From Convolutriloba macropyga (Eukaryota): a stretch of DNA of 64,000 bases. The stretch is taken from positions 12,276,001 through 12,340,000 of the forward strand of contig NC_134471.1 of the NCBI RefSeq assembly GCF_964194025.1, in the 5' to 3' direction. Below, piece by piece: positions 6,991 to 44,239 of this stretch; the stretch's first letter is position 1, and the number at the start of each line of letters is the position of its first letter. The notes under the pieces were generated by a model. That model had not been told where the DNA came from. It saw only the letters and a program-made list of their open reading frames with translations, and made no database searches. Both the position numbers and the translations under genes were made by a program.

Positions 6991-9900
6991 TTAATCTGCT
7001 CCACGATCTTCTGGTTCTTCTCGATGAAGGGGTATGAGGCGACTGACTGGTCTGATGTAAACTCCAGTTTGTGTTTTCACTTCAACAACACGAACAATGT
7101 TGTCATTACCGTCGAATGTCTGTACTATACGAGCAAGCGGCCAACACATTGGGGGAGTGTTGTCTTCTTTGATGATCACAATATCGTCTACTGCTGGTTG
7201 TACGTTTTCTGTCCTCCATTTGTTCCGCTGCTGCAATGAAGATAAGTATTCGACACTCCATTTCTTCCAGAACTGACGAATCATTTTGTCTATGTTTCTC
7301 CAATGTCGTGACAAGGTGTTGTTCTTTGGTGAAGATGGCTCGGGTATTGATGTGATGGGTCTTCCGATGATGAAATGTCCAGGGGTTAAAGCTAGGGGAT
7401 CGTTGATGTCAGTTGATGGCGCTGTTAAAGGGCGAGAATTGAGGATTGCCTCAATTTGAGTCAGGAGAGTTGTGAAGGTCGTGACAAGGTGTTGTTCTTT
7501 GGTGAAGATGGCTCGGGTATTGATGTGATGGGTCTTCCGATGATGAAATGTCCAGGGGTTAAAGCTAGGGGATGGTTGATGTCGGTTGAGGGCGCTGTTA
7601 AAGGGCGAGAATTGAGGATTGCCTCAATTTGAGTCTGGAGAGTTGTGAAAGCACTGGTTGATAACCTAGTCGATCCAACTGTTCTGTAGAGATGGCGCTT
7701 CATAGACTTAACAGCTGCTTCCCACAGTCCTTCAAAATGCGGCGTCCTGGGTGGTATTGTAAACCAATCAATGTGATTTTGGCTTGCAAAATTGTTAATG
7801 AGATCCTTGAACTCTTCACCACGAAGAAGTCGCCTGAATTCGAGTTCTCCTCGGGCTCCTATGAATGTTGTCGAATTGTCACTGTAGATTGCTTGGGGAG
7901 TACCGCGTCTTCCGGTGAATCTCTTGAGGGTATCGAGGCAATCTTCTTTGGTTAGATTTTCCACTGGCTCTAAGTGTATCGCCTTTGTGGTGAAACAAAT
8001 GAATATAGCTGCGTATGAATTTTGCAGTTTCTGTGAAGAATCTTTGGTGTAAAACGGTCCACAATAGTCCATCCCAGTGAACTGGAAGGCAAAGGATTCA
8101 ACTATCCGTTCTGCTGGCAGATCTCCCATTAATGGCTGGCGTATGCGGGCGTCAAATCGTACGCAGGGCTTGCAGTTGTGAATAACCTTCTTAACACTGG
8201 CGATTCCTCCAGGAATCCAAAATGTTTGTCGGAGGGCAAAAAGGGTCATCTGGGTTCCCCTGTGAAGGTTTCTCAAATGACTTTCTCGGATGAGTAACTC
8301 GGCTAGTGGAGATGTTTTTGGAATTATTATGGGGAACTTTTTGTCCACGCTATACGGCGAATTTGCAAGACGACCATCAACGCGGATGACGTTGTTGTCT
8401 TTGTCAAAGAATGGGGAGAGGCTGAGTAGATGACTGTTCTTCTTGATACGCTTACTGGATGATTCAACTGGTAGGTTTGAAGTTGAGTCTTCTGGTATTG
8501 TTGATCCTTTTATATACTTGAATTCCTGCAGAAAGAGTTGTTGCATGATGCTGTAAAGGGCTATCCTGGCTGAACGGAGATCCGATGGGGAAAATTGATG
8601 ACAAACACCCATTTGTCTTTTTGCTGTCATGTGTTGCTTCTTCTTCTTAACTGTTGATAGAAGGCTTGTTGGCGGCGATGAAACACTTGCTGATAAATCC
8701 GTCTGTAGCTGATAAACAGATTCGTTCTGTGATTGTTGTTCCATTGATTTGTATTGTTTTTGTTGCGTTTCATTTAGACATTGATTATTGAAGTGCGGAT
8801 GCTGTTTATTCGGGTTAATAAAGGTGTGCAATTCATGATAATCTTCTGGTGTTGAAAGAAAATTGCTGGATTGTGGAACCAAGTCTGTCGGTGTTGACTG
8901 GATTTCAGTGGTTGTTTGCTGAAGTCCGTTCATACGTTCCGTAGAATTCTCTTCCTTTGGTTCTGCGTGCTCGAAAGAGAGAGGGGGCTGCGGGTACAAA
9001 TCTGCTTCTTGACTGCGGTGATGATTGTTTGGCTGTAGGGATTGGTCTTTATGGCTGCTCTGAAGAAAGGGCTGTGGTTGTTGGGAATCGTTTCGATAGC
9101 AGATATTCTGCAGATGAGGTGCGTCCGGATTGTTGCTGGATAAACTCGAATCTTCGCATGGGTTTTCCTGCTGGTTGGTTACGAACAATTTTTCTTTGAA
9201 ATTGTTTGAAGATTGGTCTCGGGGTTTCATCGTGTGTTGTAGATGCTGACGATCTTGGTCGTTGTCAGAAGACTTTAGCTGAACATTCCCGTGCTGTTCT
9301 CTGTCGGAAACTGATTTTGGTTTTGGTTTTTCATACGTATTTGAATGATCAATTGCGGGTTGCGACTGACTGTAGTTGTTGCTTGACCTTCTATTTATTC
9401 TTGCTTTTAGTCGTTGAGTGAAAAGTTTGACGTAAGCGGAAACTCTTACAAGTCAATGCATTGACGACTGTCGGCTGAGAAGATCTAATATCCTGTTGTC
9501 TTGCTGCTGATGCTGCATTACTAGAGATAGTTGGGCTGATGAGTTTACTTCGGCTAAAGCGTCAGTTGAGGCGTTATAGAGAGGTTTAGCATCCAATGAA
9601 GTCCAAAACTGCTCGTCTTGACGCAGCCAATTGGGTCCCTTCCGCCGAAGTTGGTGATTAAGAAGTTTGTCGGCTGAAATTCTTCGTGATGCGCAATCGG
9701 CTGGATTGTCTTCGGTTGGTACAAACCTCCAATTTTCTGAAGGAATGATGCTCTGAGTCTTGGCAACTCGGTTAGCAACGAAAGTCTTCCATTTTTTGGG
9801 GATATCTTTAATCCAGGCAAGGGTCACTTGTGAATCGGTCCAAGCAAAGACTTTGGGATTGGGAAAACGGTTGTCAATGATGTCTTCTTTCACTGCTTGG

Positions 9901-12900
9901 GACAATTGAGCTCCAAGAGGTGCTGCACAGAGTTCTAAACGTGGAACACATAAAGTTTTGATTGGGGCAACGCGTGTTTTGGCTGTTAGCATTTGTGTGT
10001 GCACTCGGTCGTCCATTTGCTCTCGCACGTAGATAACTGCGGCATACGCTGTGGTTGAGGCGTCGCAAAACACATGAAGCTCCAAAGATGATTAAGAAGG
10101 TGCTGCAAAAACTCTTCGTTCAAGTTTGATCTTCTCCAGTTCTTGTAGTTCATGTCGAAATCTTCCGTATAGTTCCAGGATGTTTAATGATAGGGCTTTG
10201 TCCCAGGTCAACTTATCCATCCAAAGAATTTGCAAGAAGGATTTCAATTGAATTGTTGTTGGTGACAACCATCCGAGTGGGTCAAACAACTTTGTGACTT
10301 GCGATAATATTTTCCTCTTTGTGTTGGGAAAGTCTTTGTCTAGGCAGACTGTGAATGTGAAATGATCTGGAACAGGGCTCCACTTTATTCCAAGGGTTTT
10401 GACTGTGTAGTCGTTGCTGTTGATGATCATTTCGTCTGAACTTTCGCGAAAACTGGAAGGCAATCGCTCAACAAGTGACGAAACACTTGATGTCCATTTT
10501 CGTATATCAAAACAAGCATTTTTCAGTGTTGCGATGATTTCGTCCTGCAATTGAGCGGCGTGCTCAACATCTGAGGCTCCTGTTAGCGAATCGTCCACAT
10601 ACATGTCGTTATTGATTGCAAGCCGCAGGTTGCTGTTGGAGCAACTGTCTGCTAAGGCTTTGAGAGGTCGAATTGAGTGGTACGAAGATGATGCTTTTCC
10701 ATAGGTCACTCTTGTCATTCTGTATGTTTTCAGTTCTGTGTCATTTTGATTTTTCCACAGAACCCTGTGAAAATCCTTGTCTTCATCGTCAAGTTGAACT
10801 TGTCGGTACATCCTGGCAATGTCTGCAGATAGTGCTACCTGATGAAACCAAAAACGAATCAGAATTCCAAACAGATCCTTTTGAAATTGCGGTCCAACCA
10901 TTAGACGGTCGTTTAAAGATACTCCGCTGGCTGACTTAGCTGAGGCATCGAATACGACTCTTAGTTTAGTTGTGCTGCTGGCGTCTTTGATGACACAATG
11001 ATGTGGCAAGTAGAAACAGTTTGTTGCAGGCATATGAATTCTATTTCTGGGAACTTTTTCCATGTGTCCAAGTTGAATGAATTCCTGAATGAACTGACTA
11101 TATCTGTTGTATACGTCTGGTTGTTTCTCCAATCGGAAGATGAGGCTGCGTAGTCTTCTTTTCGCTTGATGATACGAGTCGCCCAGGGGTTTGGCGTCTT
11201 CTTTGAAAGGGAGTTTCATAACAAATCTTCCCTCTGAGTTGCGTCGGGTGGTACTTTTGAAGTCATCTTCGCATTTCTGTTCTTCTGATGTCCACTGTGT
11301 TGCTGTCGGAATTTCTTCTATCTCCCAGAATCGATCCCAGAATCTTCTTTTCAAGTTGGCCCTCACGTCCAATCACGAGCCAACCAAAACAAGATAGGCG
11401 GTAGGTAATTGGATTTGAGGCTCCTTGATTCTGTTGTCTCCAATCATCAACTCTTCATAGTGTCCTGCTCCAATTATCAAGTCTACGGTGGATGGCTGAT
11501 TGAAGTTTGGGTCCGCAAGATTGAGGTCCTGAAGTGTTGTCCAACTGCTGACATTCACATGATGCGAAGGTAGATTGCTGGTCAGTTTTGCTAAGACAGT
11601 TGCTCTGATGCTGATGAAGTTTTCATCCTTCGTTTTCAGAATCAAGTTTACTGATCCTTTGCTGTTGTTGACTTCTTGAACTCCGAGTCCAAAAACCCGT
11701 CCGTCAGCTTTCTCTTTTCTCAGTCCAAGGCGTTGTACTGCATCTTCCATGATGAGGTTGCTTTGGGATCCTGATTCTAGAATGGCTCTGATATCAGTTG
11801 CTTTTCCGTTGTTGTCGACTGAAACGATTGCGGTGGGAAGAAAAACTTCTTCTTCTTCTTCATTCTGCGACTGTGCTGCGGCTGTAAATTTTTCTTTGCT
11901 TTTGTTGACTGTTCTCGATGCTTGATTGCTTACTTCTTGTGGTGACGTGCTGCTAGTTGTCACTGTTGGTGCTGTTGAAGTTGTCCTCGAGTTGTTATTG
12001 GCTTCCAAATGCAAAAGACTGTTGTGCTTTTGTTTGCATTTCTTACAAGTTGAACCGTTGCATTGTTCACTTCGATGTCCAGGGCGTAGGCAGTTGAAGC
12101 AAAGTCCTTTTGTCTTGATCAACTGAGCTCGGTCCTGTACTGAAAGTGCTTTGAAACTTTGGCATTGACAAATTTTATGGTTTTCGTCGCAACATTCACA
12201 CGTTGTGGTCGCTGATGTAGCTATATGTGAAAGGAATTTTCACAGTTGTGGGCTGCTTGTGGGCTTCTTGTCGATGGCTGATGCTGACTGCTGTGTGGCT
12301 GCTTCAAGGGCGCGTGTTCTTTCTTCCATGAAGTCTTTCATATCATGATAGCGTTGGGGATCTCTTCCTCGTGATGAAAGTTCCCAACATTTTCTCGTTT
12401 CGGCGGGAAATTTCTCTGCAATGAGGTACACGAAAAAGATGTCCTGATCGTCCACGGGCTGTCCAAGGCTCCTAAGCGCTAATCTGTGTTCTTCGACTTT
12501 CTCCATGAGATCTCGAAGTGCCTTTGGGTTTTCAATTGTTACCGGTTTCTGTGAAACTATTGCGTAAACATGGGCTCGCAAAATCAGACGTTTGTTGTCG
12601 TATCTGTTCCTCAGGATGTCGCATGATGTACTGAAGTTTGCGTCTGTGATTTGGAGAAAGGTCAAAAGCTTTGCGGCATCTCCTTTCACTGATGTTTTTA
12701 GATACTGCAACTTTTGACTGTCTGTTATCTGGCTGTAGCTTGTCACTGCTCCGTTGAATTGGTCGAAGAAGGACGTCCATTCCTTGTAGTCTCCACAAAA
12801 AAATGGCAATTCCAGCTTGGGCAGTTTTACATTGGTGATGGCTGGTCCAGTTGCCAATCGTGGTGTTGAACTTCTAGGTGGGGTTCTTTTGTAAATGATA

Positions 12901-13198
12901 AAGCGGTTAATTAGGTCAACATGTTGTCCTATCTTGTCGTCGTAATCTTCTGATTCTTCGATTTTTTCGTCGAGTCTGTCGGTGTCATCAATCAGGTTTT
13001 GAACTTTCTGATTCATGTCTGACAGGTACAACTGTTTTTTGTCAACAATGCCGAGATTTGTTCCAGTCGTATGAGCTCCTCTTCACTGACATTTTGTCCA
13101 GGTCTCTCTGTAATTGTTTTGGCTTCGTTGTTTAATCTGATTGCAACAGTGCGGTGGGCTGTTCTTGACTTTTTCAATCTTTCAGGGTTTTCTGTCAT
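6991..13198 (-). pseudogene. Complete but frameshifted gag-pol copy of the BEL/Pao element (gag, PR, RT, RNase H, INT, C-terminal DUF5641-like domain)
   Basis: ORF fragments 13013-13198, 12240-13031, 11373-12122, 10092-11372, 9453-10085, 7461-9230 and 6991-7314 in canonical BEL/Pao order, broken by stops and frameshifts. Confidence 0.9.
7305..7650. repeat. 173-bp tandem duplication inside integrase (frameshifting)
   Basis: gtcgtgacaaggtgtt starts at 7305 and again at 7478. Confidence 0.93.
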
Positions 13199-13407
13199 TG
13201 TTGAAGACTTTTGTTTGGTGCTTTGTTGTTTGTCTGTTTGTGGATTTGTTAACTAATTAGTTGCTTTTTCTTTGTTGTCTCGTTGCCTTTGAGGTGTTGG
13301 TCTTTGCTGTGTCTTTGTCTTTGCTGTGTTGGTCTTTGCTGTGTCTTTGTCTTTGCTGTGTTGGTCTTTGGTTTGGGTGTCTTTGATTCAGATGACTGTT
13401 GCTAGAT

Positions 13408-16400
13408 GTATATCAAAACAAGCTTTTTTCGGTGTTGCGATGATTTCGTCCTGCAATTGAGCGGCGTGTTCAACATCTGAGGGTCCTGTTAGCGAATCGT
13501 CCACATACATGTCGTTATTGATTGCAAGGCGGAGGTTGCTGTTGGTGCAACTGTCTGCTAAGGCTTTGAGAGGTCTAATTGAGTGGTACAAAGATGATGC
13601 TATTCCATAGGTCACTCTTGTCATTCTGAATGTTTTCAGTTCTGTGTCATTTGGATTTTTCCACAGAACCCTGTGAAAATCCTTGTCTTCATCGTCAAGT
13701 TGAACTTGTCGGTACATCCTGGCAATGTCTGGAGATAGTGCTACCTGATGAAACCAAAAACGAATCAGAATTCCAAACAGATCCTTTTGAAGTTGCGGTC
13801 CAACCATTAGACGGTCGTTTAAAGATACTCCGCTGGCTGACTTAGCTGAGGCATCGAATACGACTCTTAGTTTAGTTGTGCTTCTGGCGTCTTTGATGAC
13901 ACAATGATGTGGCAAGTAGAAACAGTTTGTTGCAGTCATATGAATTCTATTTCTGGGAACTTTTTCCATGTGTCCAAGTTGAATGAATTCCTGAATGAAT
14001 TGACTATATCTGTTGTATACGTCTGGTTGTTTCTCCAATCGGAAGATGAGGCTGCGTAGTCTTGTTTTCGCTTGATGATACGAGTCGCCCAGGGGTTTGG
14101 CGTCTTCTTTGAAAGTGAGTTTAACAACAAATCTTCCCTCTGAGTTGCGTCGGGTGGTACTTTTGAAGTGATCTTCGCATTTCTGTTCTTCTGATGTCCA
14201 CTGTGTTGCTGTCGGAATTTCTTCAATCTCCCAGAATCGCTGTAAATTGTCTGGCTCAGAACAAATGAAGAAAGACTGAAGTTGAGTACTCTTCTTTTCA
14301 AGTTGGCCCTCACGTCCAATCACGAGCCAACCAAAACAAGATAGGCGTTAGGTAATTGGATTTGAGGCTCCTTGATTCTGTTGTCTCCAATCATCAACTC
14401 TTCATATTGTCCTGCTCCAATTATCAAGTCTACGGTGGATGGCTGATTGAAGTTTGGGTCCGCAAGATTGAGGTCCTGAAGTTTTGTCCAACTGCTTCCA
14501 TTCACATGATGCGAAGGTAGATTGCTGGTCAATTTTGCTAACACAGTTGCTCTGATGCTGATGAAGTCTTCATGCTTCGTTTTCAGAATCAATTTTACTG
14601 ATCCTTTGCTGTTGTTGACTTCTTGAACTCCGAGTCCAAAAACCCTTCCGTCGGCTTTCTCTTTTCTCAGTCCAAGGCAATGTACTGCATCTTCCGTGAT
14701 GAGGTTGCTTTGGGTTCCTGAGTCTAGAATGGCTCTGATATCAGTTGCTTTTCCGTTGTTGTCGACTGAAACGATTGCGGTGGGAAGAAATACTTCTTCT
14801 TCTTCTTCATTCTGCGACTGTGCTGCGGCTGTAAATTTTTCTTTGCTTTTGTTGACTGTTCTCGATGCTTGATTGCTTGCTTCTTGTGGTGACGTGCTGC
14901 TAGTTGTCACTGTTGGTGCTGTTGAAGTTGTCCTCGAGTTGTTATTGGCTTCCAAATGCAAAAGACTGTTGTGCTTTTGTTTGCATTTCTTACAAGTTGA
15001 ACCGTTGCATTGTTCACTTCGATGTCCAGGGCGTAGGCAGTTGAAGCAAAGTCCTTTTGTCTTGATCAACTGAGCTCGGTCCTGTACTGAAAGTGCTTTG
15101 ATGACACAATGATGTGGCAAGTAGAAACAGTTTGTTGCAGGCATATGAATTCTTTTTCTGGGAACTTTTTCCATGTGTCCAAGTTGAATGAATTCCTGAA
15201 TGAACTGACTATATCTGTTGTATACGTCTGGTTGTTTCTCCAATCGGAAGATGAGGCTGCGTAGTCTTCTTTTCGCTTGATGATACGAGTCGCCCAGGGG
15301 TTTGGCGTCTTCTTTGAAAGGGAGTTTCACAACAAATCTTCCCTCTGAGTTGCGTCGGGTGGTACTTTTGAAGTCATCTTCGCATTTCTGTTCTTCTGAT
15401 GTCCACTGTGTTGCTGTCGGAATTTCTTCAATCTCCCAGAATCGCTGTAAATTGTCTGGCTCAGAACAAATGAAGAAAGACTGAAGTTGAGTACTCTTCT
15501 TTTCAAGTTGGCCCTCACGTCCAATCACGAGCCAACCAAAACAAGATAGGCGGTAGGTAATTGGATTTGAGGCTCCTTGTTTCTGTTGTCTCCAATCATC
15601 AACTCTTCATAGTGTCCTGCTCCAATTATCAAGTCTACGGTGGATGGCTGATTGAAGTTTGGGTCCGCAAGATTGAGGTCCTGAAGTTTTGTCCAACTGC
15701 TGACATTCACATGATGCGAAGGTAGATTGCTGGTCAGTTTTGCTAAGACAGTTGCTCTGATGCTGATGAAGTTTTCATCCTTCGTTTTCAGAATCAAGTT
15801 TACTGATCCTTTGCTGTCGTTGACTTCTTGAACTCCGAGTCCAAAAACCCGTCCGTCGGCTTTCTCTTTTCTCAGTCCAAGGCGTTGTACTGCATCTTCC
15901 GTGATGAGGTTGCTTTGGGATCCTGAGTCTAGAATGGCTCTGATATCAGTTGCTTTTCCGTTGTTGTCGACTGAAACGATTGCGGTAGGAAGAAATACTT
16001 CTTCTTCTTCTTCTTCATTCTGCGACTGTGCTGCGGCTGTAAATTTTTATTTGCTTTTGTTGACTGTTCTCGATGCTTGATTGCTTGCTTCTTGTAGTGA
16101 CGTGCTGCTAGTTGTCACTATTGGTGCTGTTAAAGTTGTCCTCGAGTTGTCATTGGCTTCCAAATGCAAAAGACTGTTGTGCTTTCGTTTGTATTTCTTA
16201 TCGTTGAACCGTTGCATTGCTCACTTCGATGTCCTGGGCGTAGGCAGTTGAAGCAAAGTCCTTTTGTCTTGATCAACTGAGCTCGCTCCTGTACTGAGAG
16301 TGCTTTGAAACTTTGGCATTGATAATTTTTATGGTTTTCGTCGCAACATTCACACGTTGTGGTCGCTGATGTGGCTATATGTGAAAGGAATTTTCGAAGA

Positions 16401-17323
16401 TGTGGGCTGCTTGTGGGCTTCTTGTCGATGGCTGATGCTGACTGCTGTGTGGCTGCTTCAAGGGCGCGTGTTCTTTCTTCCATGAAGTCTTTCATATCAT
16501 GATAGCGTTGGGGATCTCTCGTTTCGGCGGGAAATTTCTCTGCAATGAGGTACACGAAAAAGATGTCCTGATCGTCCACGGGCTGTCCAAGGTTCCTTAG
16601 CGCTAATCTGTGTTCTTCGACTTTCTCCATGAGATCTCGAAGTGCCTTTGGGTTTTCAATTGTTACCGGTTTCTGTGAAACTATTGCGTGAACATGGGCT
16701 CGCAAAATCAGACGTTTGTTGTCGTATCTGTTCCTCAGGATGTCGCATGATGTACTGAAGTTTGCGTCTGTGATTTGGAGAGAGGTCAAAAGCTTTGCGG
16801 CATCTGCTTTCACTGATGTTTTTAGATACTGCAACGTTTGACTGTCTGTTATCTGGCTGTTGCTTGTCACTGCTCCGGTTAATTGGTCGAAGAAGGGAGT
16901 CCAATCCTTGTAGTCTCCACAAAAAGTTGGCAATTCCAGCTTGGGCAGTTTTACATTGGTGATGGCCGGTCCAGTTGCCAATCGTGGTGTTGAACTTCTA
17001 GGTGGGGTTCTTTTGTAAATGACAAAGCGGTTAATTAGGTCAACATGTTGTCCTATCTTGTCGTCGTAATCTTCTGATTCTTCGATTTCTTCGTCGAGTC
17101 TGTCGGTGTCATCGATCAGGTTTTGAACTTTCTGATTCATGTCTGACAGGTACAACTGTTTTTTTGTCAACAATGCCGAGATTTGTTCCAGTCGTATGAG
17201 CTCCTCTTCACTGACATTTTGTCCAGGTCTCTCTGTAATTGTTTTGGCTTCGTTGTTTAATCTGATTGCAACAGTGCGGTGGGCTGTTCTTGACTTTTTC
17301 AATCTCTCAAGGTTTTCTGTCAT
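13408..17323 (-). pseudogene. Two extra partial copies of BEL/Pao gag-PR-RT (17323-15096 and 15101-13408)
   Basis: ORFs 16130-17323, 15525-15797, 14320-15528 and 13388-14323 are near-identical to the 10092-13198 segments. Confidence 0.92.
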
Positions 17324-17974
17324 TGTTGAAGACTTTTGTGTGGTGCTTTGTTGTTTGTCTGTGGATTTGTTAACTAATTAGTTGCTTTTTCTTTGCTGTC
17401 TCGTTGCCTTTGAGGTGTTGGTCTTTGCTGTGTCTTTGTCTTTGCTGTGTTGCTCTTTGGTTTGGGTGTCTTTGATTCAGATGACTGTTGCTAGATGTAA
17501 ACAAAAGAAAAACCCAAAAAATCCCCAGCTATCTGTCCCCCCGACCAATAAGACAACCAAAAAAAAACACAAAAAACGTTACACTTAGTCTTAGAACCGC
17601 AGAGGGGACGATTAATGCTACCTAGTTTGACGGTTTCACCCTCCATGGTTTTCAAGAAAATGACTCAAAAAACACTTGGCATATATCTGTTCCCCCACTA
17701 GATAACTCTTGTTCCGAGACCCAGGTTAATCAACCTGTCAGTAAATTTAAGTTAATCAACTTAAATGAACTGAGGGGGATGGTTATCTAGTGGTTGTCCG
17801 CTTTTTTTTGTTGATGATTAGCTTATTTTTGATACCCCAACTTAGCCTATCTTAGTCTTATGTACCTCCCCCGATAGAGAATCTAATGTCTAATGTGAGC
17901 TGTTCCTAACCCGGGTGCGTTTGCTCACTCTAATTCTAAGGTATATCCTATGATTTTGTTCGGCGGACCAGAAA

Positions 17975-18176: not shown

Positions 18177-18631
18177 AAATCGTTAATTATTTTAAAGCCT
18201 AGCGGAGTAAAGTTTTAGGCTAAATGCAAGCTGAAAATCGTGAATTTGAGTTAGTGACGGTGCTTTTTTTATCAATTATCTTCATGATTTTAGCATTTAG
18301 TTTTCATCAAGCAAAATGTAAAATGAGACCAGATTTTGTGTATAACGTATCTCGTTTCCACGAAACTCCAAATGTCTTCTAAAAAAGCAGTTATCGCAGT
18401 TATCGCGTTTTTGATTGTTATAAACATCAGCCAAAATAGTTCAAATAAGCTTCAACATTGTTAATACAAGGCAAAATTTATGCAGTAACGTGGTTTTTGT
18501 CAACGGTATATCATCAGTTGAAACCCTCTTAACCTAAATTTTCTAATTTCAAAAGACAGCATCCAATGGTGAATGCCATATTCAGATGGTTAATTATTTG
18601 AAAAAGTCATTATGAATACTCTTTTTTATAT

Positions 18632-18935
18632 TGCAGCAGTAGTATTTCTGGATGTACACCTCCAACCAATCAGAGACTGAGAAGACACTATTCTCTTAAA
18701 TAAAGCGCCTGCTCCACTACATCTAGTCCGTCTGTTAGTTTGGATAAACATGTGTATATACTTGAATCCGGTGCTATACTGTATTATCACCGTATTAATA
18801 GAAATTTATCTAATGTGTTTTACAGAGTCGGTTAGTCTTAGAAATATAGGTAAGCCTACTTCGCGCGCAGAAATAAATAGCCCTAGTTCTTTATACTTTA
18901 AGGCTGTAAAAGTAGCCCACCTTGGGTCTGCCTTA
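18632..18935 (+). repeat. 5' LTR of Gypsy-like element
   Basis: Aligns with 24684-24988; visibly more diverged than the BEL LTR pair. Exact 3' end uncertain by 1-3 nt. Confidence 0.85.
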
Positions 18936-20496
18936 ACTGGTTTAACCAGTGAACGCTCACAAACATACTATTCTCTCTTAAGAAAAAACTTAGAGCTAGT
19001 TTATACTCTTTTTACACCTAAAATTTAGAAAACGGGAACACATACCCATCAAATTATTAAGAAAATAAACATGAAAACACAAGTATTAGTAAAATGAGCC
19101 ATCAAACTGGCCAAACGGCATCAAAATTGGACACACATTCCGACGAATTACACCTAGTTGTTCTTACACAACAGAACAAACGTCTTTTGCATGAAAAACT
19201 ACCATTTAAAATTGCACAATATCAACACCAAGATGAATTAAACTTTAAAGACAGCGAAACAATTCAAATATCACTATTTTGCAGTAGAGCAACTGCTTCT
19301 CCTCTCTTTACCGGACAAAGCTTCACAAGTCTCACTGACTGCTTTTCTTTCATATCTAATCGAAATCTACCGAGCTCAACTCACAAAAGTCTTATTTCTG
19401 TTTTTTGCGACCCTCTCACTAAAAGTTATTTTTCACTCATTTACGACTTTTTAAATAAACCACTATCAGACACACTATTTGAATTTTTTCATCGGAGTTT
19501 TGACAGAATTAGAACCCTCTGATAGAAAATCGTCATTTGAATTTCTAAAATGCCGAGCGTCAACACTAAACACCGCTGATTCAAAGTTAGGAAAAGAAAA
19601 CTTGCACAAAATTGCTAAAAAAGAGTTCGAAGGTTTCACTCACCTTATAAAACGTAAATAAGCCTTGCAAAATCTGCCGAAGAGGAGATTAGACTCACTC
19701 ACACTTCTATCCTGGTACAAACGAAGATTTTGTTAAAGTTTAGGAAGACCTATTTCTTCGGCCGCAAAACACATAGCAGATACGTACCCCCAACTAATGG
19801 ATAAACTACCAGAAACACTACACAACATTTATGACTAAAATTAGTTTCCAGAAAATTTCATAAGTATCACAGAAATACCATCTGAAATTATACAAAAAAT
19901 TGATCATATAATATAGAAAATGGAAACCATAATGCCGAAAACCAACCTCTTCAATTCACAAACATTCCGGAAAATACAAATACATCACTTGAAGCATCAC
20001 CAATAGAAAACATGGATAACATTGTACATTCAAGGCCGACGGACTCAAAGTTAAATGAAACCACAGATACTGACTTTATTTCCAATAACAACAATAATAA
20101 TAATGAGATGATAAACGCTATCTCTAATAATATAAATGTTCACAAAATCAAAGACAACCTGTGAACTCACCCGAATTGGCACAAAGTTCAGATCCTCTAA
20201 ATACAACTCTTCCCTTACTACCTGATCTAAATACACCTTTACTCAGCTTACAAAGAACAAAGACAGAATTCATAAAACTTCAAAACTGAACCAGTTATCT
20301 GAAAAACACAGGCTCAACAGCTTCAACTAACAATCAAAATATTCAATTAACCCCAGAACGATTAGTAAATTTTGTCAGACAATTTAATTCAAAAACTACT
20401 CAACAGACAACAAACGCTCCAACCCCTTATTACTTACATACACCTTCAGCAGTGTTTACCCAAACACCTCCGCCAGTTGTTAGAAGAAATACACAA

Positions 20497-21185
20497 ATGA
20501 TATAACTTTATGTAGGAGGGTCAGTACCCATGAGGCAGTCTTTAAGACAATTTGATGGTACTGACGCTATGTACACTACAGAAGATTTCCTAACTCTATC
20601 ACAGTAAACAGGTTAACGACAGCTGGACCGGAACGTTTCGACTCACCGTATCATAAAGCATAGTTTCTAAAACCAATCACCATGATACAAACGGCTTTAA
20701 TCGGCCCAGCACGACAGCGGTATTCAAGTCCACCACTAGAAGTTAAAAAAAAGAACTGGTGAGAGTTTTGCCGAGAAATTCAAAAGAGTTTTTGATAATC
20801 AACAATCTCAAACACAAAGGAAATTACTATTAGAAAGCATAACTCGTGCCCAGGAGAACAAATAAAAACATTAGCACTCAGAATTGAACAAATGGCTGGA
20901 AAAGCATACGTTAATAACGCTCCAGATATGTAAATGCACTGATGAATGACGCACTTGTCAAAGCAATTGATCCAAAATTAACTAGAATTGCTCTTAAAAA
21001 GATTGTTAATCACAAATCCGCAGTATTGGAACCACAGCTTCCATTTGCACAGTTAATTGAGAAAATTCATCGAGAAGACATTACTAGAGCACATATAGAT
21101 AGAAATAAAACAAATAAAAATTCCACTATTTCATCAACCATAAAGAATATATCTATGGAAGTAGATAATCTCACAATAGATTATA
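20497..21185 (+). pseudogene. Degenerate Gypsy-type gag (capsid)
   Basis: Frameshifted translation SLRQFDGTD...TTEDFL...IQTALIGPA...KNW.EFCREIQKSF...GEQIKTLALRIEQM...MNDALVKAIDPKL resembles the Retrotrans_gag pattern. Confidence 0.65.
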
Positions 21186-24100
21186 TCAGCATAAATAGCT
21201 AAAGAGATTGGACTGAATTAATAGATAAAACGAAATTTAACCAATCAGTAGATGACGCCGCCAAAAAGTTTGAAGTGGCACACATAGTTAAAATCGCAAA
21301 ACAGGCACAATTACAAGAACAATTTTCACAACTACAAAGCCAATACATCAATTACTTCAACAATCTCTTTATTGACGGAAAGGAGTTTACACTCCTCCGT
21401 CTCGATTGGCGTGACTTAATCAACTGCAATTATTTAAAAGAATCCTTCATAGGAGTCTCTGGATATCCCTGTTACGTATCAAAAAAACAGTCAAAATATG
21501 GACTCTTTTTAAATTCCTACAGTGCCTAATAGGACTATTTCGTTTCGCTATTAACGCGAATAACCTCAAATCACTTTTAGGTCCTAATATCACATTGGCT
21601 TAGATTAAAACATCCCAATTTTTTGGAGTATTCTCACAAACTATTTTCCATGCATTACAATCATACTCTTCACAATATGAACCACCCTCGCCGATGCAAA
21701 GACGAAAGCACTCTGTTGATCGTAGCACTCACTCTCTCAAAATGAATTGAATCTACTACACAGAAAATTTAGAGAAAAACAAAAGAAAATTTTTCTATAA
21801 GAAAATTTCCTCTATAAGAAAATTTCCTCTCCCGTACATAACTCGAATAAGCATAGAGCTTCTACTCTTCCCACATCCTTCTATGAATGCTACGAACTAC
21901 CAGTGAGCCAAACAGGTAACCAGATTTGCAATCACTCTATTAGGACATTTCCCACCCTAGTAAACGCAAGCGATCACATGCCATATCACTCTCTAAAGAT
22001 TCTTTCGAAGATGGTCCTATTTATCAGGATATCCTGGAAGAACTTATCTTAAAATTACCAAGTACTCGTATGTAACATCTTTTTGCTTTAGTGACACCAC
22101 AGCTGTCAATACCGCTCCTCAGTATGGAGGTTCACTTATCCCTCCAAACGTCGACCCCACAGCGTACGACCCTATTAAACTGGATGCCGACAACATCCTG
22201 CCATTGCCACTCACGCCATATGTGCTGCCCCCTCCAGTGCCTGAAGCAGTATGGGAAATTTAGACGCCGGCCCTCTCTACGATGGCCCAGTTCTCCCCAC
22301 AGCCATAGTCTCAGGAATCGGCCACCTATGCTCCAGTGCCTTCAACCGCCACTTCTACTTCGTCATCGGGATAACCGCATTTATACATCGGGAGCGACAC
22401 ACGCTCACCCACAGCACCTATGGTATCACTGAGTTTGTCACACGAACTCTTGCTACAGGGGCAACCAGCCGGTGCCACAGCCACCGCATTCCTTTACTTT
22501 GGCGCCACAGCCGCCACAGCCGACGTCATGATCGCCACAATTGGTGCCACAGCCCATACCCCAGCCCCCACACAGCTACACAGCTCTTCTTGGGCTAACA
22601 AAGTTGCTGCGGAACAATCGCGTCGCTCAACATCCGAAACAGTAGTCCCTAATTGGGCCTATTTGGGCGGAATTGTTGGCCCCCGAACACGCTCCCAACC
22701 ACTGGTGTATCTACCACCAGTGGTGCCAACACCAACATCACAACCCACGAACATTCAATCACAAGTACATGGAGTACCTACAATTCCTCCACCTAGAGCT
22801 CGACCAGCCTTCCCTCAGCCACCTCCTTTTGATCGGCCAACATCGACCGATATTTACCTTTGCACGGACCCTTCTCCACGAAGACGTCCCAGACCAACAA
22901 CATACGAAATTTATCCCATACGGTTAAAACTTATGCAGACCTCGTCAGAATCACCCGCTAGGTATACAACTAGCTCACCAAGAGGCTCACAGCCCTCAAA
23001 CTCCAAGGCACGAGTGAATCCCTTTACTCCCACACAAGGAGTTTTGCACAGAGCACCCGGCCCGAACTTTAAGTTCCACGGGTTTACTTATCCTCTTGGC
23101 ATCAACACAGACTATTGTGATCATGTTCCTGAAAGGTTAACCACGTCGTCACGCAGCCTCACCATACATTGAAACCAACAGCTTGCACATATTTACTGGG
23201 ACAGCTAGAGAATGAGTATGTCGAGGAAGGAAGGGATAAGGAATTCTTTCTAGAGTGCCTCCACTTTCCTATAAAACCCTGGTTTACGGAGAGCTTGTGG
23301 CATCTTTCCAAGTACTTCTTCGCCCTGCCCTCGGAGATTGTCAAACCAATTATTTGAACAATGTTTACGAGAGAATTTGCCCCTTTGCGTAATTACCAGA
23401 AAACGACCCTTTCTGCCTTAAGTCTGGTTTTTTGCATCCAACACAAATTGATGTAAATAACCAAACGCACAAAGTCAACCGGAAAAAGATGTTACAAATC
23501 ATCCACAACTAGCTCTTTGTCCAGCACCACTTTCGCAGAATGAATCCATTGGTCCACGTAAACTCGCGCCTTCAATATGTCAGCACAAAATTCACTTCAG
23601 CCTACTGCATAAACTACAGCTACATCAGCTACCCCAACTATTGTGAAAGCGCCATTTGTAGTTTTATTCCAATAAAAATTTGCTTTTTCTTTACTCTACA
23701 CAAAATTACAAACACCGATTTTTGTCCCCATCGAATAACTCCAGTACGTAGAGAGAGGCACCACAAAGTTTATGTAAGAGCATACTTTCAATCGCCTTTA
23801 CAGGGACTGGATGATGGACAAGCTGGCGAACAGAGAGCCGACGCCAGAAGAAACACGAATTCTCAATCACCTCTTGGCGTTACAAACCCACTGCAACACT
23901 GATTTGTCGCTCGTGCACTTTCGCACGAGACAAGGATTTTCTGGAATTCTTCTGGGATCCTGACAATCGGGCCCCTGACTTCGAATTTGAGTTCCGGACG
24001 TAGGCCACAGTCCAACCAAAATGAGCTCAGTGACCCACAAAAACTCGCGGACTCACTGTTTTGCACTGAACTAATAAAAAATTTCATTTTCTTTTCTTTG

Positions 24101-24683
24101 CTTTCTATTTACAATTCTATAATTTCTTTCATCTATATACTACTTTCTTTCATTCTTCTCTGCCATAATTGACAATTAGGATCAGTTCTTTTCTTCTATT
24201 CTCCGGTCGGAACTTAATCAGCACGCACTGAATTTCAGTGGAAGTTTAAGGGTAGCTCACACAGTAGCTAAAGGGTGGATTTCCAACAGAAGGTAAGCTG
24301 GTAAATCCGATCGGTAAAACCCTGTACTAAATAGAGATAAACAGAAATCTCCCTGTACATCCAACGGAGACTGCAGACTACAAGTGATCCTCCAAATGGG
24401 AACAAACCCTCACTACAAGACAGTGAGAGACAGTTGAGTACTTTGACAGGAGTGACGTTACTGGCCGGCACACCCTGTAACTGGCAGCTTCACTGGTTCC
24501 ACAATTGAGTGGACTATTCACTGACGACACTAGTCAGCACTCTACTGACAGGGATTTCAGACGACGGCACAAGTCACAAGCCCACTTTGACTCCTCATTT
24601 CACAACACAACGGGGGTGCCAGATCCAGCATGTTTCTGCTACAATTCACAAATTCGGATTTAAAACTCTTAACCCCGGATGGA

Positions 24684-24988
24684 TGTAGCAATTGAAAAAC
24701 TGGATGTACACCTCCAACCAATCGGAGACTGAGACGACACTATTCTCTTATATAAAGTGCATGCTCCACTAACTCTAGTCAGTCTGTTATTTTAGATACA
24801 CCATGTGTATACACTTGACTCCGGTGCTATACTGTATTATCACAGTTTTAATAGACGTTTATCTTCTGTGTTTTACAGAGTCGGTTAGTCTTAGAGATAT
24901 TGGTAACCCTACTTCGCGCGCAGAATTAAGTAGCCCTAGCTCTTCTTATCCTAAGGCTGTAAAAAGAGCACACCTTGGGTCTGCCTTA
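24684..24988 (+). repeat. 3' LTR of Gypsy-like element
   Basis: Aligns with 18632-18935. Confidence 0.85.
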
Positions 24989-27900
24989 ATATTTTTAAAC
25001 TTGTTTGATTATCAAATTTGAATTTGTGAGCTTTGTTCAAGTTTCTCAACGGGAAAACCACAGAAGACTGTTTTTAAGCTACTGTGTGCATAATCAGGGT
25101 TTCTATGATCCTTGGAATGGAACCTGTGGAAATGAGCAGCTTTATACGGAGATTGCGGATAATTTCATTTTAAAATGTTTCTGAAAAACTTTTTTTTTCA
25201 AAACTTATTTCTTAAAAACAGAGCATTACTAGTCATAAAAAAACCAGATCAATTATATTTCCAATTCTAATCAAAGCTATTTTTGTGGCGTTGTCGCTTT
25301 ATTGCGAGATGAAGAATGGATATTGAAAATCATATGATCCTTATAGAGAACTTTTTTTGTTTTAGATAAATATTCAGGAATACAGCCATGGAATTAGTTA
25401 GTTTTCAGAATTAGTCTTTCGTATTCCAAAACTCTGTCGGATATCGGACGTACCAATTTTTTTAGCTCACAAAACCCTCCAGATGTACTCCTACTTTTAT
25501 CATCAACAAGAAAATTGGAAATGTCAGTTTCTGAAAATGGTCCGGTGAAAATCTTCGCTCGACCAGCTGATTGTGTAGGCAGCTAAGTCTCAGTGAAAAA
25601 AAGCACCTGTTAGACTTTAAAAAAAGCTTTTGTATACCAGAATAATATTGTAAAAAATGCATCAGAGGGCCAGTTTTTGAGGAAACTATTGTACAGTCTT
25701 GGAGGAAAAAAACAAATTCACAGAATTGTGGGTGAAAGGTCTAATTTCCCGCTCGCGGGTTTTCTTTTGACTGCACCCCAGGTATTTGACATGCTCAAGA
25801 TTTTACTCAATACATTTTGATGCGAACCAACCGTTGAAATCAAAATTTTGATTGATGGACTCAAAGATTTCAGATTGGTAAATCAGGCTCACCGTTTTCA
25901 GCTAATTCGATTTTGGATATAACACGTAACAGTCCCCATCCCAAAAATTTTTTGTCAAGGCTCACATCAATAACATTGAAGGGTTTTCTTTCATGGTCAC
26001 TTTATTTTGTCAAGCTTTTTATCTGCTTAAAATGTTTATTTATTCTTTTTGTCGTTAGTATTTCAGCTCATTCAATTTTCTCAAAGATTTTTATATAATC
26101 GGTTATTTTACTGAGATCATTGCAAAGTTGTTTTTAAATACGTCTTTCACTATTTTGAGCGAGATTTTTCTCGGCATACATTTAGTCCGGATATCGAGAG
26201 AGTAAAACTCATTCTAAGTGATATGTTGTTGGATAATAACATATTCCTCCTTAAGCAAAAATTCATTTTCATCACTTTTAGTCGCTTTTGTTTGTTTATT
26301 TAGGATTTCGCTGAACTGATTAATGGTACAGTGCTGCTTTCGGATAAGAACAATTACACCTCGTCCAACAGTTTTCTTAATCATTTTCCCGTTTCCCGTT
26401 TCAAAAAAAATTTGATGAACAATTATGCGCTACCTGAATGTGCATATTTTGAGTGAATTTTGCGCAATTTTTGTCAACATTTGACTGAAAATTGGACAAA
26501 AACAGCATTTTTGGGCTTGAAATGCTACTTTTTTCTCTATCTTCTACTGCTCATACTTATTTGTCACGATCAATCATCTACGAAACTTGTCACAATCAAT
26601 CTCTTCAAGCCGACGCGTAACCAAATCGTTTTTAAATAAAAAATTATGATAATTCTGATTTTTTGCAAATTCTATTTAGAAATCAGCTGGCCGATAATCG
26701 TATTTCAAATGGAAAATCACGGATAGTCTGGAAGTTATAAGGATTAAGTTCTGATCCTTATGTTGAATTGGATTTATACGTTCCCAGTACTGATATGTAG
26801 TTGGAGTTATATTGTCTTCATTCTCAACCTAAAAATTCAACCTAACTTTTCGTCTGGATTTCACAATTATCTCAAATTTGAGTACCGACCCTGAAACAGA
26901 CATAGAGTCACATAAAATATAAAAATATTCTATGCCAGTTTTAGACCTACAATCCCTACCTGATTTTCGTAAGCAGTTCAAGTAACTTTTCTGTAAAATC
27001 TATCCTGCGTTTTCCAAGTTTTTGAAGAAGATCTAGAATAAAAAATTTCGCGCATCCTAACGCAATAATTTTGTTCAACATCTCTAATATTTCCGGTTTA
27101 AATAACATTAAAAGACTTTGTAAATGGTGGCTGATGAAAATCCTTAGCCTCATTTTATCACCGATGCTTAAAACAAACTAATTTTCCATAAGGGAATATT
27201 TGAAATTGATTATAAGTTTGTATTAGTTGCTTTGTCCAATATCAAAGTTTAAATCACAACTGGTGCGCAATGTCTATATGGAATAAAACTCTAATGTGGA
27301 AACTGCTCAACTACATATAATAATAATTATATGAACAAATTGGAAGTACACAGATTGATTTTGCACTTTTTGGTCGCATAAAACTTTATCATTGGAATTT
27401 AACGCCATATTGCTCATATATTTAAATTAAACATTTAGTTTTGTTCACATTTCCATTATTCGTGTGATTGTATGGAACGTTGATTTCCACGGTGAAATGT
27501 TATGTCAGTGTGAAATTTTGATAAACCAAATTGCAAAAAAAAATACAAAAAACACGATTAATATAGACAAATTGCTTAGACTTGGGTCAAATGTTTTTAA
27601 ATTTGGGTAAAGTCTTTTGAAAGTGAAATGTAAACATTTTACTATTTTCACTATTTTCTAACTTGTAGTGATATGTAATTGCATTCGACAGTTTTTCTGG
27701 AGTGATTAAATTGGTTTTACTTAGACTCTGATAAAATTGAGCAGTTTTCATATCACGGCAGCGCTAACGCAATCTGCATTCTTTTTTGGTATACTAAAGC
27801 TTTTTTACTGCTAAAAATTACCCCAGAAATTCTCAAGGCGATTATTCTACTTTTAGTTATTTTATTAATTAATAAAATCATCGAGTTATGCACACAGTTA

Positions 27901-32908: not shown

Positions 32909-33173
32909 GTTCTTCTGAGATCAAAAAATCAATAAGGAACAGTTTCCTTTCGTTTTTTCCTGAGTGAAGTAAGAATTAGGATTAACTATCTATAGATTGC
33001 TGCCAATGTTTTTCAACTCGGAAACGGGGTTAGAAAACTTATGCCAGCCCAATTTTTTGTTAAGCCTAGTTTGGTTATCTTTAACGGAGAGATAAATCTG
33101 GTGCCAGTGATGCATTAGATTGATCGCTGGAGAGACATTTTCAGTTTTTTAGTTTCCCGAGGAAATGAGAAGA

Positions 33174-33320
33174 CTCATAATTTCTCATAATTTCACATAA
33201 TTTCTCATAATTTCACATAATTTCTCATAATTTCACATAATTTCTCATAATTTTCTCATAATTTTCTCATAATTTTCTCATAATTTTCTCATAATTTCTC
33301 ATAAAATTTCTCATAATTTC
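33174..33320. repeat. Minisatellite (TTTCTCATAA/TTTCACATAA)n, ~14 units
   Basis: Direct reading of 10-11-bp units. Confidence 0.95.
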
Positions 33321-40300: not shown

Positions 40301-40995
40301 ATAGGGGAACTTTGATTTGCAGTAACAATAGATTTGGACAACTCCTTGACTAGCTTGAAAAAAATAATATTTCAAAAATACATTTTGCAAAACAACGAAA
40401 AAACCGTTTGAAAATCTAACTTTTTTCCTAAGAAAGCTAGGTCAAAAATTCTTTTTGACTTGGATCCCAGTGACATAGGGGAACTTTGATTTGAAGTAAC
40501 AATAGATTTGAACAACTCCTTGACTAGCTTGAAAAAAATATATTTCAAAAATACATTTTGCAAAACAACGAAAAAAACGTTTGAAAATCTAACTTTTTTT
40601 CTAAGCAAGCTAGGTCAAAAATTCGTTTTGACTTGGATCCCAGTGATATAGGAGAACTTTGATTTGTAGTAACAATAGATTTGGACAACTACTTGACTAG
40701 CTTGAAAAAAATATATTTCAAAAATACATTTTGCAAAACAACGAAAAAAACGTTTGAAAATCTAACTTTTTTCCTAAGCAAGCCAGGTCAAAAATTTTTT
40801 TGACTTGGATCCCAGTGATATAGGAGAACTTTGATTTGTAGTAACAATAGATTTGGACAACTACTTGACTAGCTTGAAAAAAAATAATTTTCAAAAATAC
40901 ATTTCGCAAAACAACGAAAAAAACGTTTGAAAATCTAACTTTTTTCCTAAGCAAGCTAGGTCAAAATTTTTTTTGACTTGGATCCCAGTGATATA
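40301..40995. repeat. Tandem repeat, four units of 172-174 bp
   Basis: Unit starts at 40301, 40475, 40648, 40820; array ends ~40995. Confidence 0.95.
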
Positions 40996-42569
40996 AACAA
41001 AGCTTAGCTCAAGCTGGGTCTAACAAAAAAAGTTTCGTCAAAATCGATTCACTCTAGAACGAGTTATTCCAAAGTAAAGGTACCGTACCAAATGACCAAA
41101 AAAGCAGAGTACTCCGGCTGCAGAGCCAAAATTCGGCATCTGCACTTGCTAAAATGCTATGAGAAATATATATGGGAGCCTTCCCCTCATTCTGTCGAAG
41201 CTAAAGAACTATAATTTATAACTTAAATAAGCTGTTTTGTGGTACCGAAAACTTGGGTCACCCAGAACAGCCCGAAAATTCGACTTTTTTCAACTTCAAA
41301 CATTAATAAATTTTTGATATAGACTATTTGAGAAACCAATCAAACACTGCAAGAAAGAGGATTTCAGTGCTAACAAAATGCGACCACTCCCGTTTAATTT
41401 GGTCCAGTACTTTAGCAGATATTAACAAAATACTGTTTTGTACCCCATTTTTTGGGCTAAAATCGAAGCCCAGAATATCCGGAACTGACGTAAAACAACG
41501 TGAAACCGAGTTGCCAGCGTATTTTTGGTGGTGATTCTGCTCCACTTTGACGTTCTGGGTCACGCAAAACCTTCATGGGGAGGTAGGAAAAAATTTCTCA
41601 CCTCACCATGAAGGTTATGATGTTTTGTGTCTTTTCACATAAAACAACATCCACAGAAATTTGATGAAATCGTGAAAAAAAAAATTGTTGAGTTGACCCC
41701 ATTAATTGATACAAATCGCTTCAAGAACTCAAATACTGTCCAGAAAACACAAAAAGGACGCCCAAAAAACTTGTTCAATTGCAAAAAAAAAACACCACTT
41801 ACCTCATTCATTTGGTCAAATGACCCATTTTGACTACCAAGTTCCACGTCTCGCTCAAATAAACCATCAAAACGTGTAAAAAAGGTACAGTGTGTATATA
41901 GTGATACTCTCCATCAACTGAGCTTTCTAAAACATTATAATTTTTAATCTTGACACAAAAAATTTCAACATTATTTCACCGCCGAAATAGCCGAAATTGG
42001 ACGAAAATCGAGGTTCAGCGCCTATAGAGCAAAAAATGACCCACTCAGCTCCATAAAACCATATACAAAATATGTATGGGGATACTCCTCACTACAATAC
42101 AAATCCAACGAACTCATATATGTAGGGATACTATGGTATTTTAGGTTACGCATTTTTGGGGAAATCCAATATCACCTGAAATATTGACTTTTTTTCAAGT
42201 TTGCCAATCAATAAATTTTTTAACAGGCCGAATTAGGGTAGTACAATTATATGAAGTGCCAGACGGTTACAATGTCAACACAATGAGTCTATGTTGGTAG
42301 AATTCTGTTGAGTACTTGACTACTTATCAACAAAACAACTAATTGTACTATGTCGTTTCCGCTTCTATATTACTGTAATCCAATTTTCCACAGACGTTTT
42401 TTATGCAGGATTAATAGTTTTTGATGTAATACATAAGGAAGAATAACTAACAAAAAGATATCAATATTGAGAGATTCAATTACATAAAAAGCTGTGAAAA
42501 AATTGTGGCTCCTTCTCTATTAGGAATCAAATGAAACTCAATTGAAAAAGCCTAATCACTGACACCAAT

Positions 42570-44140
42570 TAAATTACAATTCAGATGAGAGAATATGCGA
42601 CAAAAAGCCTTGCTGAAACCTTAATTTGACAAAAATCTAATTCAAAAATGACTTTTTACCTAAACTAGAACAGAAATAATTGAAATGACCGCAAATGAAT
42701 TACATAAAATTTTCCTTACTTTCTTATCGACTGTGGGTGTGTATTCAAAGGTTTTATCTCCAGCTGAGTAAGTGGTAAAGACTATTTATTGTTTAAAAAA
42801 TGTTTATTGTGTAAAAGAGTTAATTTGATCCAGTTAATCCGCAAACTTTTTTTTTTTGAAGTTCAGTTTGCATCTAGTCTTTTTTTGAGACGTAAGTTGT
42901 AAGCACTGCTTTTATCTGGGCAAAAACTTCCCTATATTGAATTTAGTATTCAAATATTGGTTTTGTTAGAGCTGAACGTTTTTCGTCTTGATTAAAAGCA
43001 TAAACTGTAAGAAATATCAATAATGCGATATTCATTTACTTAAAAACATGTGAAAAAGAAATGTTGTCTCTCTATTTTGGGAACCAAATGAAACCTAGCT
43101 CATGTTTCCCCAACTGTTGACACAAAAAACAAAGACTCATAGGAGAAGATTTGCGATGAAATTTCTTGCTGAATTTTTGAAGGTGACAAAGTCTCAAAAA
43201 TATGTTTCTACAGAAATCAGAACAGAATTAATTTAACCCACCGCAAATGAAATAAAATAATCTTTTCGTTACTTTCTTAACAACTGTTGACACAAAAAAC
43301 AAAGACTCATAGAAGAAGATTTGCGATGAAATTTCTTGCTGAATTCTTGAAGGTGACAAAGTCTCAAAAATATATTTCTACAGAAATTAGAACAGAATTA
43401 ATTTAAACCACCGCAAATGAAATAAAATAATCTTTTCGTTACTTTCTTTACAACTTATGGCTTGTATTTTTGATCTATTTGTGAGCTGTGTAAGTCCTAA
43501 AGACGGTTTATTGTCTAAAAAAGTCCACAGGGTAATTTGATCCAGGGAATCCGCAAACGTTTTTTTTGAACTTCAGTTTGTATCTAGTCTTTTTTGAAAC
43601 GTAAGTTGTAAGCATTGCTTTTATCTGGGCAAAACTTTCCCAATTTTTAATTTTGCAATGGTTTTTTAGAGCTGAACGTTTTTCGCCTTGATTAAAAACA
43701 TAAACTGTAAGAAATATCAATGATGCGATATTCAGTTACATAAAAATATGTGAAAAAGAAATAATGTCTCTTTTATTTTAGGAACCAACGGAAACCCAGC
43801 TCATAATTCCCCAACTGTTGATACACAAAACACAAAAAAGTCGGAGAAGAAGATATGCGATGAAAATTCTTGCTGAATTCTTAAAGGTGACAAAGTTTCA
43901 AAAATATCTTTCTACAGAAATTAGAACAGAATTAATTTAACCGACCGCAAATGAATTAAAATAATCTTTTGGTTACTTTCTTAACAACTTATGGCTTGTA
44001 TTTTAGGTTCTATTTTTGAGCTGTGAAAGCTGTAAAGATTGTTTATTGTATAAAGAAGTCCACAGGGTAATCTGATCCAGTTAATCCGCAAACAATTTTT
44101 CTTGAACTTCAGTTTGCATCTAGTCTTTTTTGAGACCTAA
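42570..44140. repeat. Diverged ~540-bp tandem repeat (~2.5 units) with an internal 170-bp duplication (43111/43281)
   Basis: aatccgcaaac anchors at ~42836, 43548, 44084; caactgttgacacaaaaaac at 43111 and 43281. Confidence 0.85.
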
Positions 44141-44239
44141 TACATAAGCATGGGTCCTATTTGGAAACAAAAAACTCAGTATTTACTTCTATCATGGGGA
44201 TATTTTGTATATCGGTGAACGTCAAGAAAAGAAACCGAT

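Follow-up and report, generated by a model that had tools for sequence, protein, structure and literature searches.

A dead, internally deleted Ty3/gypsy copy in Convolutriloba macropyga retains the remains of a post-env gene that is under purifying selection in its family

Complex vertebrate retroviruses are characterised by regulatory accessory genes; those located 3' of env include tax and rex in the pX region of human T-lymphotropic virus (HTLV) and tas and bet (bel) of foamy viruses. Among Ty3/gypsy accessory regulators, CERV is one well-studied case. In this work, we have analysed 64,000 nucleotides of Convolutriloba macropyga DNA (contig NC_134471.1, positions 12,276,001 to 12,340,000; hereafter the window), in which a reading of the sequence alone, here called the original prediction, had placed a pol-less Gypsy-like element with three or four novel accessory genes at 18936–24683. 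Our overall reading, which we hold to be somewhat more probable than not, is that the element derives from a 16.5-kb env-bearing Ty3/gypsy parent by internal deletion and is dead, and that its sole accessory gene here, ORF-X (ORF, open reading frame), is under selection in the family, likely spliced and likely a regulator of the element itself.

The closest described group is that of the herpes simplex virus (HSV)/gB-type "ancient errantiviruses" (Chary and Hayashi, PMC13524379). They share with the window family the long terminal repeats (LTRs), the gag-pol-env order, a Ty3/gypsy Pol, a chuvirus/mononegavirus-type env, a tRNA primer and recent multi-copy spread. Relatives of the window element also carry an errantivirus-type env, that is, a separate ORF after pol with a signal-peptide-like start, a Cys-rich ectodomain and a C-terminal transmembrane segment. 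On the other hand, the window family is at least 16.5 kb long, holds two or three selected ORFs in ~2.8 kb between pol and env, and adds a 600-residue gene after env. The prefilter in that report sets ceilings of 1 kb for the gap from POL to ENV and of 10 kb for the region, so elements like these could be missed by it. The terms "accessory" and "extra ORF" are not used in its main text, and a word search of its seven supplements, a weak test covering cells to 400 characters and leaving figures outside, gave no match to an ORF-X motif. In the open literature, with bioRxiv supplements, figures and Repbase-type repeat databases outside the search, no description of ORF-X or such an element was found.

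The planarian Burro and plant Ogre elements are likewise large Gypsy elements with extra coding capacity, and the env of Burro also resembles mononegavirus fusion proteins (PMC6431247). As described there, Burro exceeds 25 kb and carries its env in frame after gag and before pol, within a polyprotein of ~4,900 residues that contains BIR, MATH and ankyrin motifs, while the size of Ogre comes from long LTRs. None of these Burro characters was found in our relatives; unlike both elements, the window family has LTRs of only ~0.3 kb, and its extra genes are separate ORFs without BIR, MATH or ankyrin motifs. LTR elements of bdelloid rotifers resemble it in having an extra ORF after pol and an invertebrate host; according to PMC5408684 their ORF3 encodes either env or an enzyme (GDSL esterase or DEDDy exonuclease), whereas ORF-X belongs to no Pfam family and is present in addition to env.

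The parent family is abundant in this genome. In the 1.18 Gb searched, window 22300–23500 gave 45 DNA matches, the closest other copies being 67–75% identical, and protein searches returned 1797 and 2498 first-look candidates, the best 150 of which were scored in each. Full-length relatives, whose recovery by means of the LTR and rebuilding of ORFs had been proposed beforehand, were found, and their natural open frames gave the intact layout. The LTR pairs are 100% identical in two recent copies, which measure 16,468 and 16,619 bp and have breaks of their own; from one LTR to the other these copies show gag-pol, then two or three small ORFs, then env and finally ORF-X. We regard this anatomy as practically certain. 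A second, young family (family B, >18 kb; L122, L126, L134 and L136 on G000 C2, C4, C10 and C3), with a variable block between pol and env, has gag-pol, pre-env ORFs, a 1150-residue env and ORF-X in the same order, and a third, older family keeps the same gene order including ORF-X after env. Between families, identity is ~45% for Pol, 28% for env, 32–35% for the ORF-X domain and 41% for the C-terminal domain of the long pre-env ORF.

In recent copies ORF-X is a single frame of 632–636 codons. Window positions 22066–23997 correspond to its residues 2–630, interrupted by several frameshifts and stops, with a Pro/Ser/Thr-rich N-terminal half reaching to ~23050 and a conserved domain thereafter. 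That is, the separate ORFs predicted at 22420–23500 are frameshifted pieces of one gene, which also fills ~500 bp of the supposed ~1-kb non-coding tail and leaves a true one of ~680 bp. The ratio of non-synonymous to synonymous substitution rates (dN/dS), a test already suggested in the original prediction, is 0.10 between the two recent copies (0.20 in the N-terminal half, 0.05 in the C-terminal domain). Of ten other copies compared, three give 0.05–0.06 and seven are saturated at synonymous sites. ORF-X is thus a real gene under purifying selection. It occupies the same post-env slot in three diverged families, and a dN/dS of ~0.05 in the same slot of families that share just 28% identity in env suggests that its function is old and is needed by env-bearing invertebrate retroelements.

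A profile search of 1.84 billion representative sequences gave 172 proteins at E <= 0.001. The 150 listed among them are all unnamed, several being only ~30% identical, and most appear to be fragments of the window element's family. One homologue, P0108, belongs to family B, where all 80 scored matches are 86–99% identical and 71 lack an internal stop. For P0094/P0103 and P0151, the roughly one tenth of candidates scored in this genome include no close match, and these proteins therefore probably come from other organisms. Metagenome contigs yielded no loci for an outside homologue, and viral contigs none for the family-B domain. Searches of Pfam, PHROGs and PDB sequences with ORF-X and its alignments returned nothing credible, and Pfam Tudor matched none of 38 members. 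The protein has no membrane anchor. Capture of a host gene for a recognisable enzyme was rejected as its origin; descent as a paralogue of the pre-env ORF domain was also rejected (hhalign probability 0.05).

Between pol and env, recent copies hold three overlapping frames of ~127, 228 and 441 codons, with dN/dS values of 0.12–0.14, 0.52–0.57 (partly overlapping another frame) and 0.05–0.15, respectively (L091:6150-8132, minus strand; L093:2001-3971; G000 C3 and C16 copies). The longest (441–451 codons) lacks a Met and joins a low-complexity N-terminal part to a C-terminal domain of ~120 residues, whose dN/dS is 0.03–0.06. Nothing credible matches these ORFs in Pfam, PHROGs or PDB sequence searches. 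Overall, conserved accessory genes do exist as predicted, and three or four non-canonical ORFs is a fair count for the family as a whole; the window copy, however, keeps only ORF-X, a well-supported unannotated post-env gene, two or three others falling in the deleted part.

The remaining coding remnants are collinear with gag-pol and env. Window 19094–21193 corresponds to gag-pol residues 12–742 with several frameshifts and stops, and 19094 is the first Met of a continuous gag-pol frame in relatives, not the start of a separate ORF upstream of gag (19094–19660). That single frame comprises, in recent relatives, an N-terminal extension without a Pfam family (dN/dS 0.13–0.26 among relatives), Retrotrans_gag, protease, reverse transcriptase (RT), RNase H, integrase and SH3. 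The Pfam order of Pol is protease, RT, RNase H, integrase, the protease match being weak (E 0.09–0.28); the best solved-structure match of the RT is that of Ty3 (E 2e-28), and dN/dS of gag-pol between the two recent copies is 0.11. One relative (L092:3538-8862, minus strand) has long inserts without Pfam match between protease and RT (~residues 1000–1330) and between RNase H and integrase; part of the former looks dUTPase-like by eye.

As for env, the original prediction had seen no motif, yet window 21167–22072 aligns to family env residues 620–889, including the transmembrane segment, with frameshifts and stops. In a relative, env is a separate ORF of 881 residues after pol; it begins with a hydrophobic stretch, has a transmembrane segment at residues 729–747 and 13 Cys, and matches PF24664 (E 9e-14, 50.8 bits against a cut-off of 27), the Pfam entry for mononegavirus/chuvirus-type fusion proteins. 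PF24664 scores above cut-off in env of both the window family (family A) and family B. The window fragment on its own is too short to match it, Pfam gave nothing above cut-off for ten window fragments of the element, and env has no PDB sequence match. Its dN/dS between the two recent copies is 0.13–0.22. As PF24664 and PMC13524379 would suggest, a class III-type fusion protein could serve the parent for exit from cells. The refuting condition set with the original prediction, a match to known env, holds for 21205–22075 and not for ORF-X. Of the five "accessory" pieces, rightly recognised as same-strand coding remnants, two belong to env, two to a single gene and the other to the N-terminus of gag-pol.

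The abrupt switch noticed near 21190 is a deletion junction. Relatives align to the window until 21190 and resume at 21189, with 9.1–9.8 kb between in all five relatives measured; this intervening DNA contains RT, RNase H and integrase fragments, and four bases are common to both junction flanks. The end of gag, protease, RT, RNase H, integrase, the pre-env ORFs and the first two thirds of env are lost, so the original prediction of a large virus-like Gypsy element that was reduced by deletion and lacks Pol domains is borne out by its full-length relatives. The middle may have been lost through template switch or repair at the 4-base microhomology. Among the 40 matches scored, the best of 244 candidates, only the window copy spans the junction, which argues for a single deletion and against an amplified non-autonomous family of the terminal-repeat retrotransposon in miniature (TRIM) or large retrotransposon derivative (LARD) kind. 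As a deletion, the window copy is ordinary and dead; it cannot make RT, integrase or a full env.

The predicted limits 18936–24683 are exactly the internal part of an LTR element with the Ty3/gypsy hallmarks of two LTRs, target-site duplication, primer-binding site and polypurine tract (Table 1). Its LTRs are identical at 268 of 305 aligned bases, that is, 12% apart, and the copy is old. Two recent relatives show 4-bp target duplications and the same LTR ends. The 3' end of a tRNA-Met(CAT), whose genes form tandem arrays in the same genome, matches the primer-binding site of these relatives; the tRNA pattern had 94 genomic matches against 0 for a reversed control, and ARAGORN was run on three loci. 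Long tandem arrays of this tRNA gene lie at G000:C1:77669826-77767008, interspersed with tRNA-Thr(CGT), and at C4:55026579-55131165. Elsewhere in the window there are a decayed BEL/Pao-type element (6994–17400, minus strand; DUF1759 gag, E 1.6e-27) with internal tandem duplications of 1.2–4.1 kb, an inverted repeat of ~1.1 kb resembling a miniature inverted-repeat transposable element (1138–2276), a minisatellite with a 10–11-bp unit (33166–33319), and tandem repeats of 170–173 bp (40359–44197).

Table 1 Features of the element, in window positions.
Feature	Position	Strand	Basis or remark
Target-site duplication, left copy ATAT	18628..18631	.	same 4 bases beside 3' LTR
5' LTR, 304 bp, TG...TA ends	18632..18935	+	LTR pair comparison
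Possible leader exon: 33-codon Met-started hydrophobic frame in LTR, ending at donor-like GT 18850-18851	18750..18851	+	weakly supported
Primer-binding site, decayed	18938..18953	+	complementary to tRNA-Met(CAT) 3' end in recent copies
N-terminal extension of gag-pol polyprotein, residues 12-383 of relative, broken	19094..20104	+	tblastn
Gag capsid region, residues 398-742, broken, stops before zinc knuckle	20140..21192	+	Retrotrans_gag at residues 574-648 of relative
Deletion junction, 4-base microhomology GCAT, ~9.5 kb lost	21189..21192	.	alignment to relatives
env C-terminal third (membrane-proximal helices, transmembrane segment, cytoplasmic tail), broken	21190..22075	+	52-61% identity to relative's env residues 620-889
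Likely splice acceptor: branch-like TAAC, pyrimidine tract, AG at 22090-22091	22072..22091	+	directly behind env stop
ORF-X, post-env accessory gene, ~600-630 residues, broken by frameshifts and stops	22092..24003	+	alignment to relatives
Part of ORF-X matching predicted SH3/Tudor/KOW-like beta-barrel, approximate limits	23594..23760	+	model of family-B homologue, residues 189-246
Non-coding 3' region, ends at polypurine-tract position	24004..24683	+	
3' LTR, 305 bp	24684..24988	+	
Target-site duplication, right copy ATAT	24989..24992	.	

The likely acceptor before ORF-X keeps its AG in 43 of 53 aligned pieces. Just upstream of the AG, the two recent copies differ by two bases, which shifts the frame, and downstream of it codons are conserved for ~25 residues ahead of the first Met. 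The AG, the tract, the upstream length changes and the downstream codon conservation together fit a splice acceptor that needs a phase-2 donor. Judged from these sequence signals, splicing into ORF-X is quite likely, and the protein would be made from a subgenomic spliced RNA. The LTR frame in Table 1 recurs at 24803–24904 in the 3' LTR and is signal-peptide-like; it is open from Met to donor in 32 of 36 distinct LTRs, and the strong donor has its GT in 53 of 66. Its ratio of non-synonymous to synonymous polymorphism (pN/pS) is 0.69 in frame against 1.05–1.08 in shifted frames, a weak coding signal. In-frame splicing of this leader to ORF-X was rejected, since its donor is in phase 1 and phase 2 is needed; it could feed the Met-less long pre-env frame instead. 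Two neighbouring GT sites that resemble donors (24290–24306), in the non-coding stretch before the 3' LTR, are conserved in 40–41 of 44 aligned copies.

For the fold, a structure model of the family-B homologue was used and the result mapped to the window. The model contains an SH3-like five-stranded barrel, and ORF-X is predicted to have a disordered half rich in Ser/Thr-Pro, followed by an SH3/Tudor/KOW-like barrel and a helical bundle. The barrel matches Tudor, KOW, PWWP, chromo-barrel and R67 DHFR folds within 1 Z unit of each other. In the BFVD fold search, a match with E 9e-4 was rejected (root-mean-square deviation 24.6 A), and the other matches are small SH3-like phage proteins.

Three roles may be considered for ORF-X. 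The parent should replicate as a Ty3/gypsy element, and ORF-X would regulate the element's own transcription or its RNA handling or export in the nucleus. This role fits best because of the post-env position, the absence of an anchor, the phosphorylatable disorder and the KOW/Tudor-like barrel, and we hold it tentatively, at somewhat under even chances. ORF-X could instead be a counter-defence protein, which would use its Tudor-like barrel to imitate or obstruct the factors of host silencing by small RNA or chromatin, as the Tudor, PWWP and chromo-barrel matches may hint. Family B speaks for this proposal: two ORF-X versions with 77–83% DNA identity (dS 1.6) sit on a pol/env backbone that is 95–97% identical (dS 0.17), so the module has been exchanged. 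However, other blocks, namely non-coding DNA, the stretch after pol and the start of the pre-env ORF, are also mosaic, and with a dN/dS of 0.04–0.10 no positive selection is seen in ORF-X; we consider counter-defence rather unlikely.

Pro-rich halves can bear late-domain-type motifs, and ORF-X adjoins env in all three families examined, as would suit a structural or assembly protein of the particle, one that links Gag to the long tail of env in the manner of a matrix or tegument protein. Such a role is improbable: ORF-X has no membrane anchor, its sequence has been exchanged independently of env in family B, and its barrel is closer to nuclear nucleic-acid or chromatin readers than to any capsid or matrix protein listed. 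As to a pol-less element, perhaps of a non-autonomous family, in which three or four novel ORFs would be separate genes, the several short same-strand frames in the window invite it, but their collinearity with gag-pol, env and one ORF, and a junction spanned by 1 of 40 scored matches, make it hardly credible. Young family B with its dozens of open copies makes expression and splicing directly testable.

The role proposed for ORF-X is likened to those of the genes 3' of env in complex retroviruses or of CERV in Cer1. ORF-X resembles the former in its post-env position, its likely access by splicing and its want of a membrane anchor; the window family differs from complex retroviruses in its Ty3/gypsy Pol, its non-retroviral env and the absence of a sequence match to any PDB chain. 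It is conceivable, though we would put it below the regulatory role itself, that an invertebrate Ty3/gypsy lineage has independently become "complex" like HTLV and foamy viruses, with a gB-type envelope and a conserved set of spliced accessory genes, ORF-X founding a new family of Tudor/KOW-like regulators that is module-swapped between subfamilies. The Cer1 element of C. elegans is also Gypsy-type, and CERV is likewise an extra protein from a spliced RNA, with structured domains and flexible phosphorylated linkers (PMC10309623). Compared by description, CERV has its 5' exons in common with gag, and its domains are H, M (with a Cys loop) and one that is G-protein-like; ORF-X is located 3' of env and is predicted to contain an SH3-like barrel. 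CERV is the nearest functional model for ORF-X.

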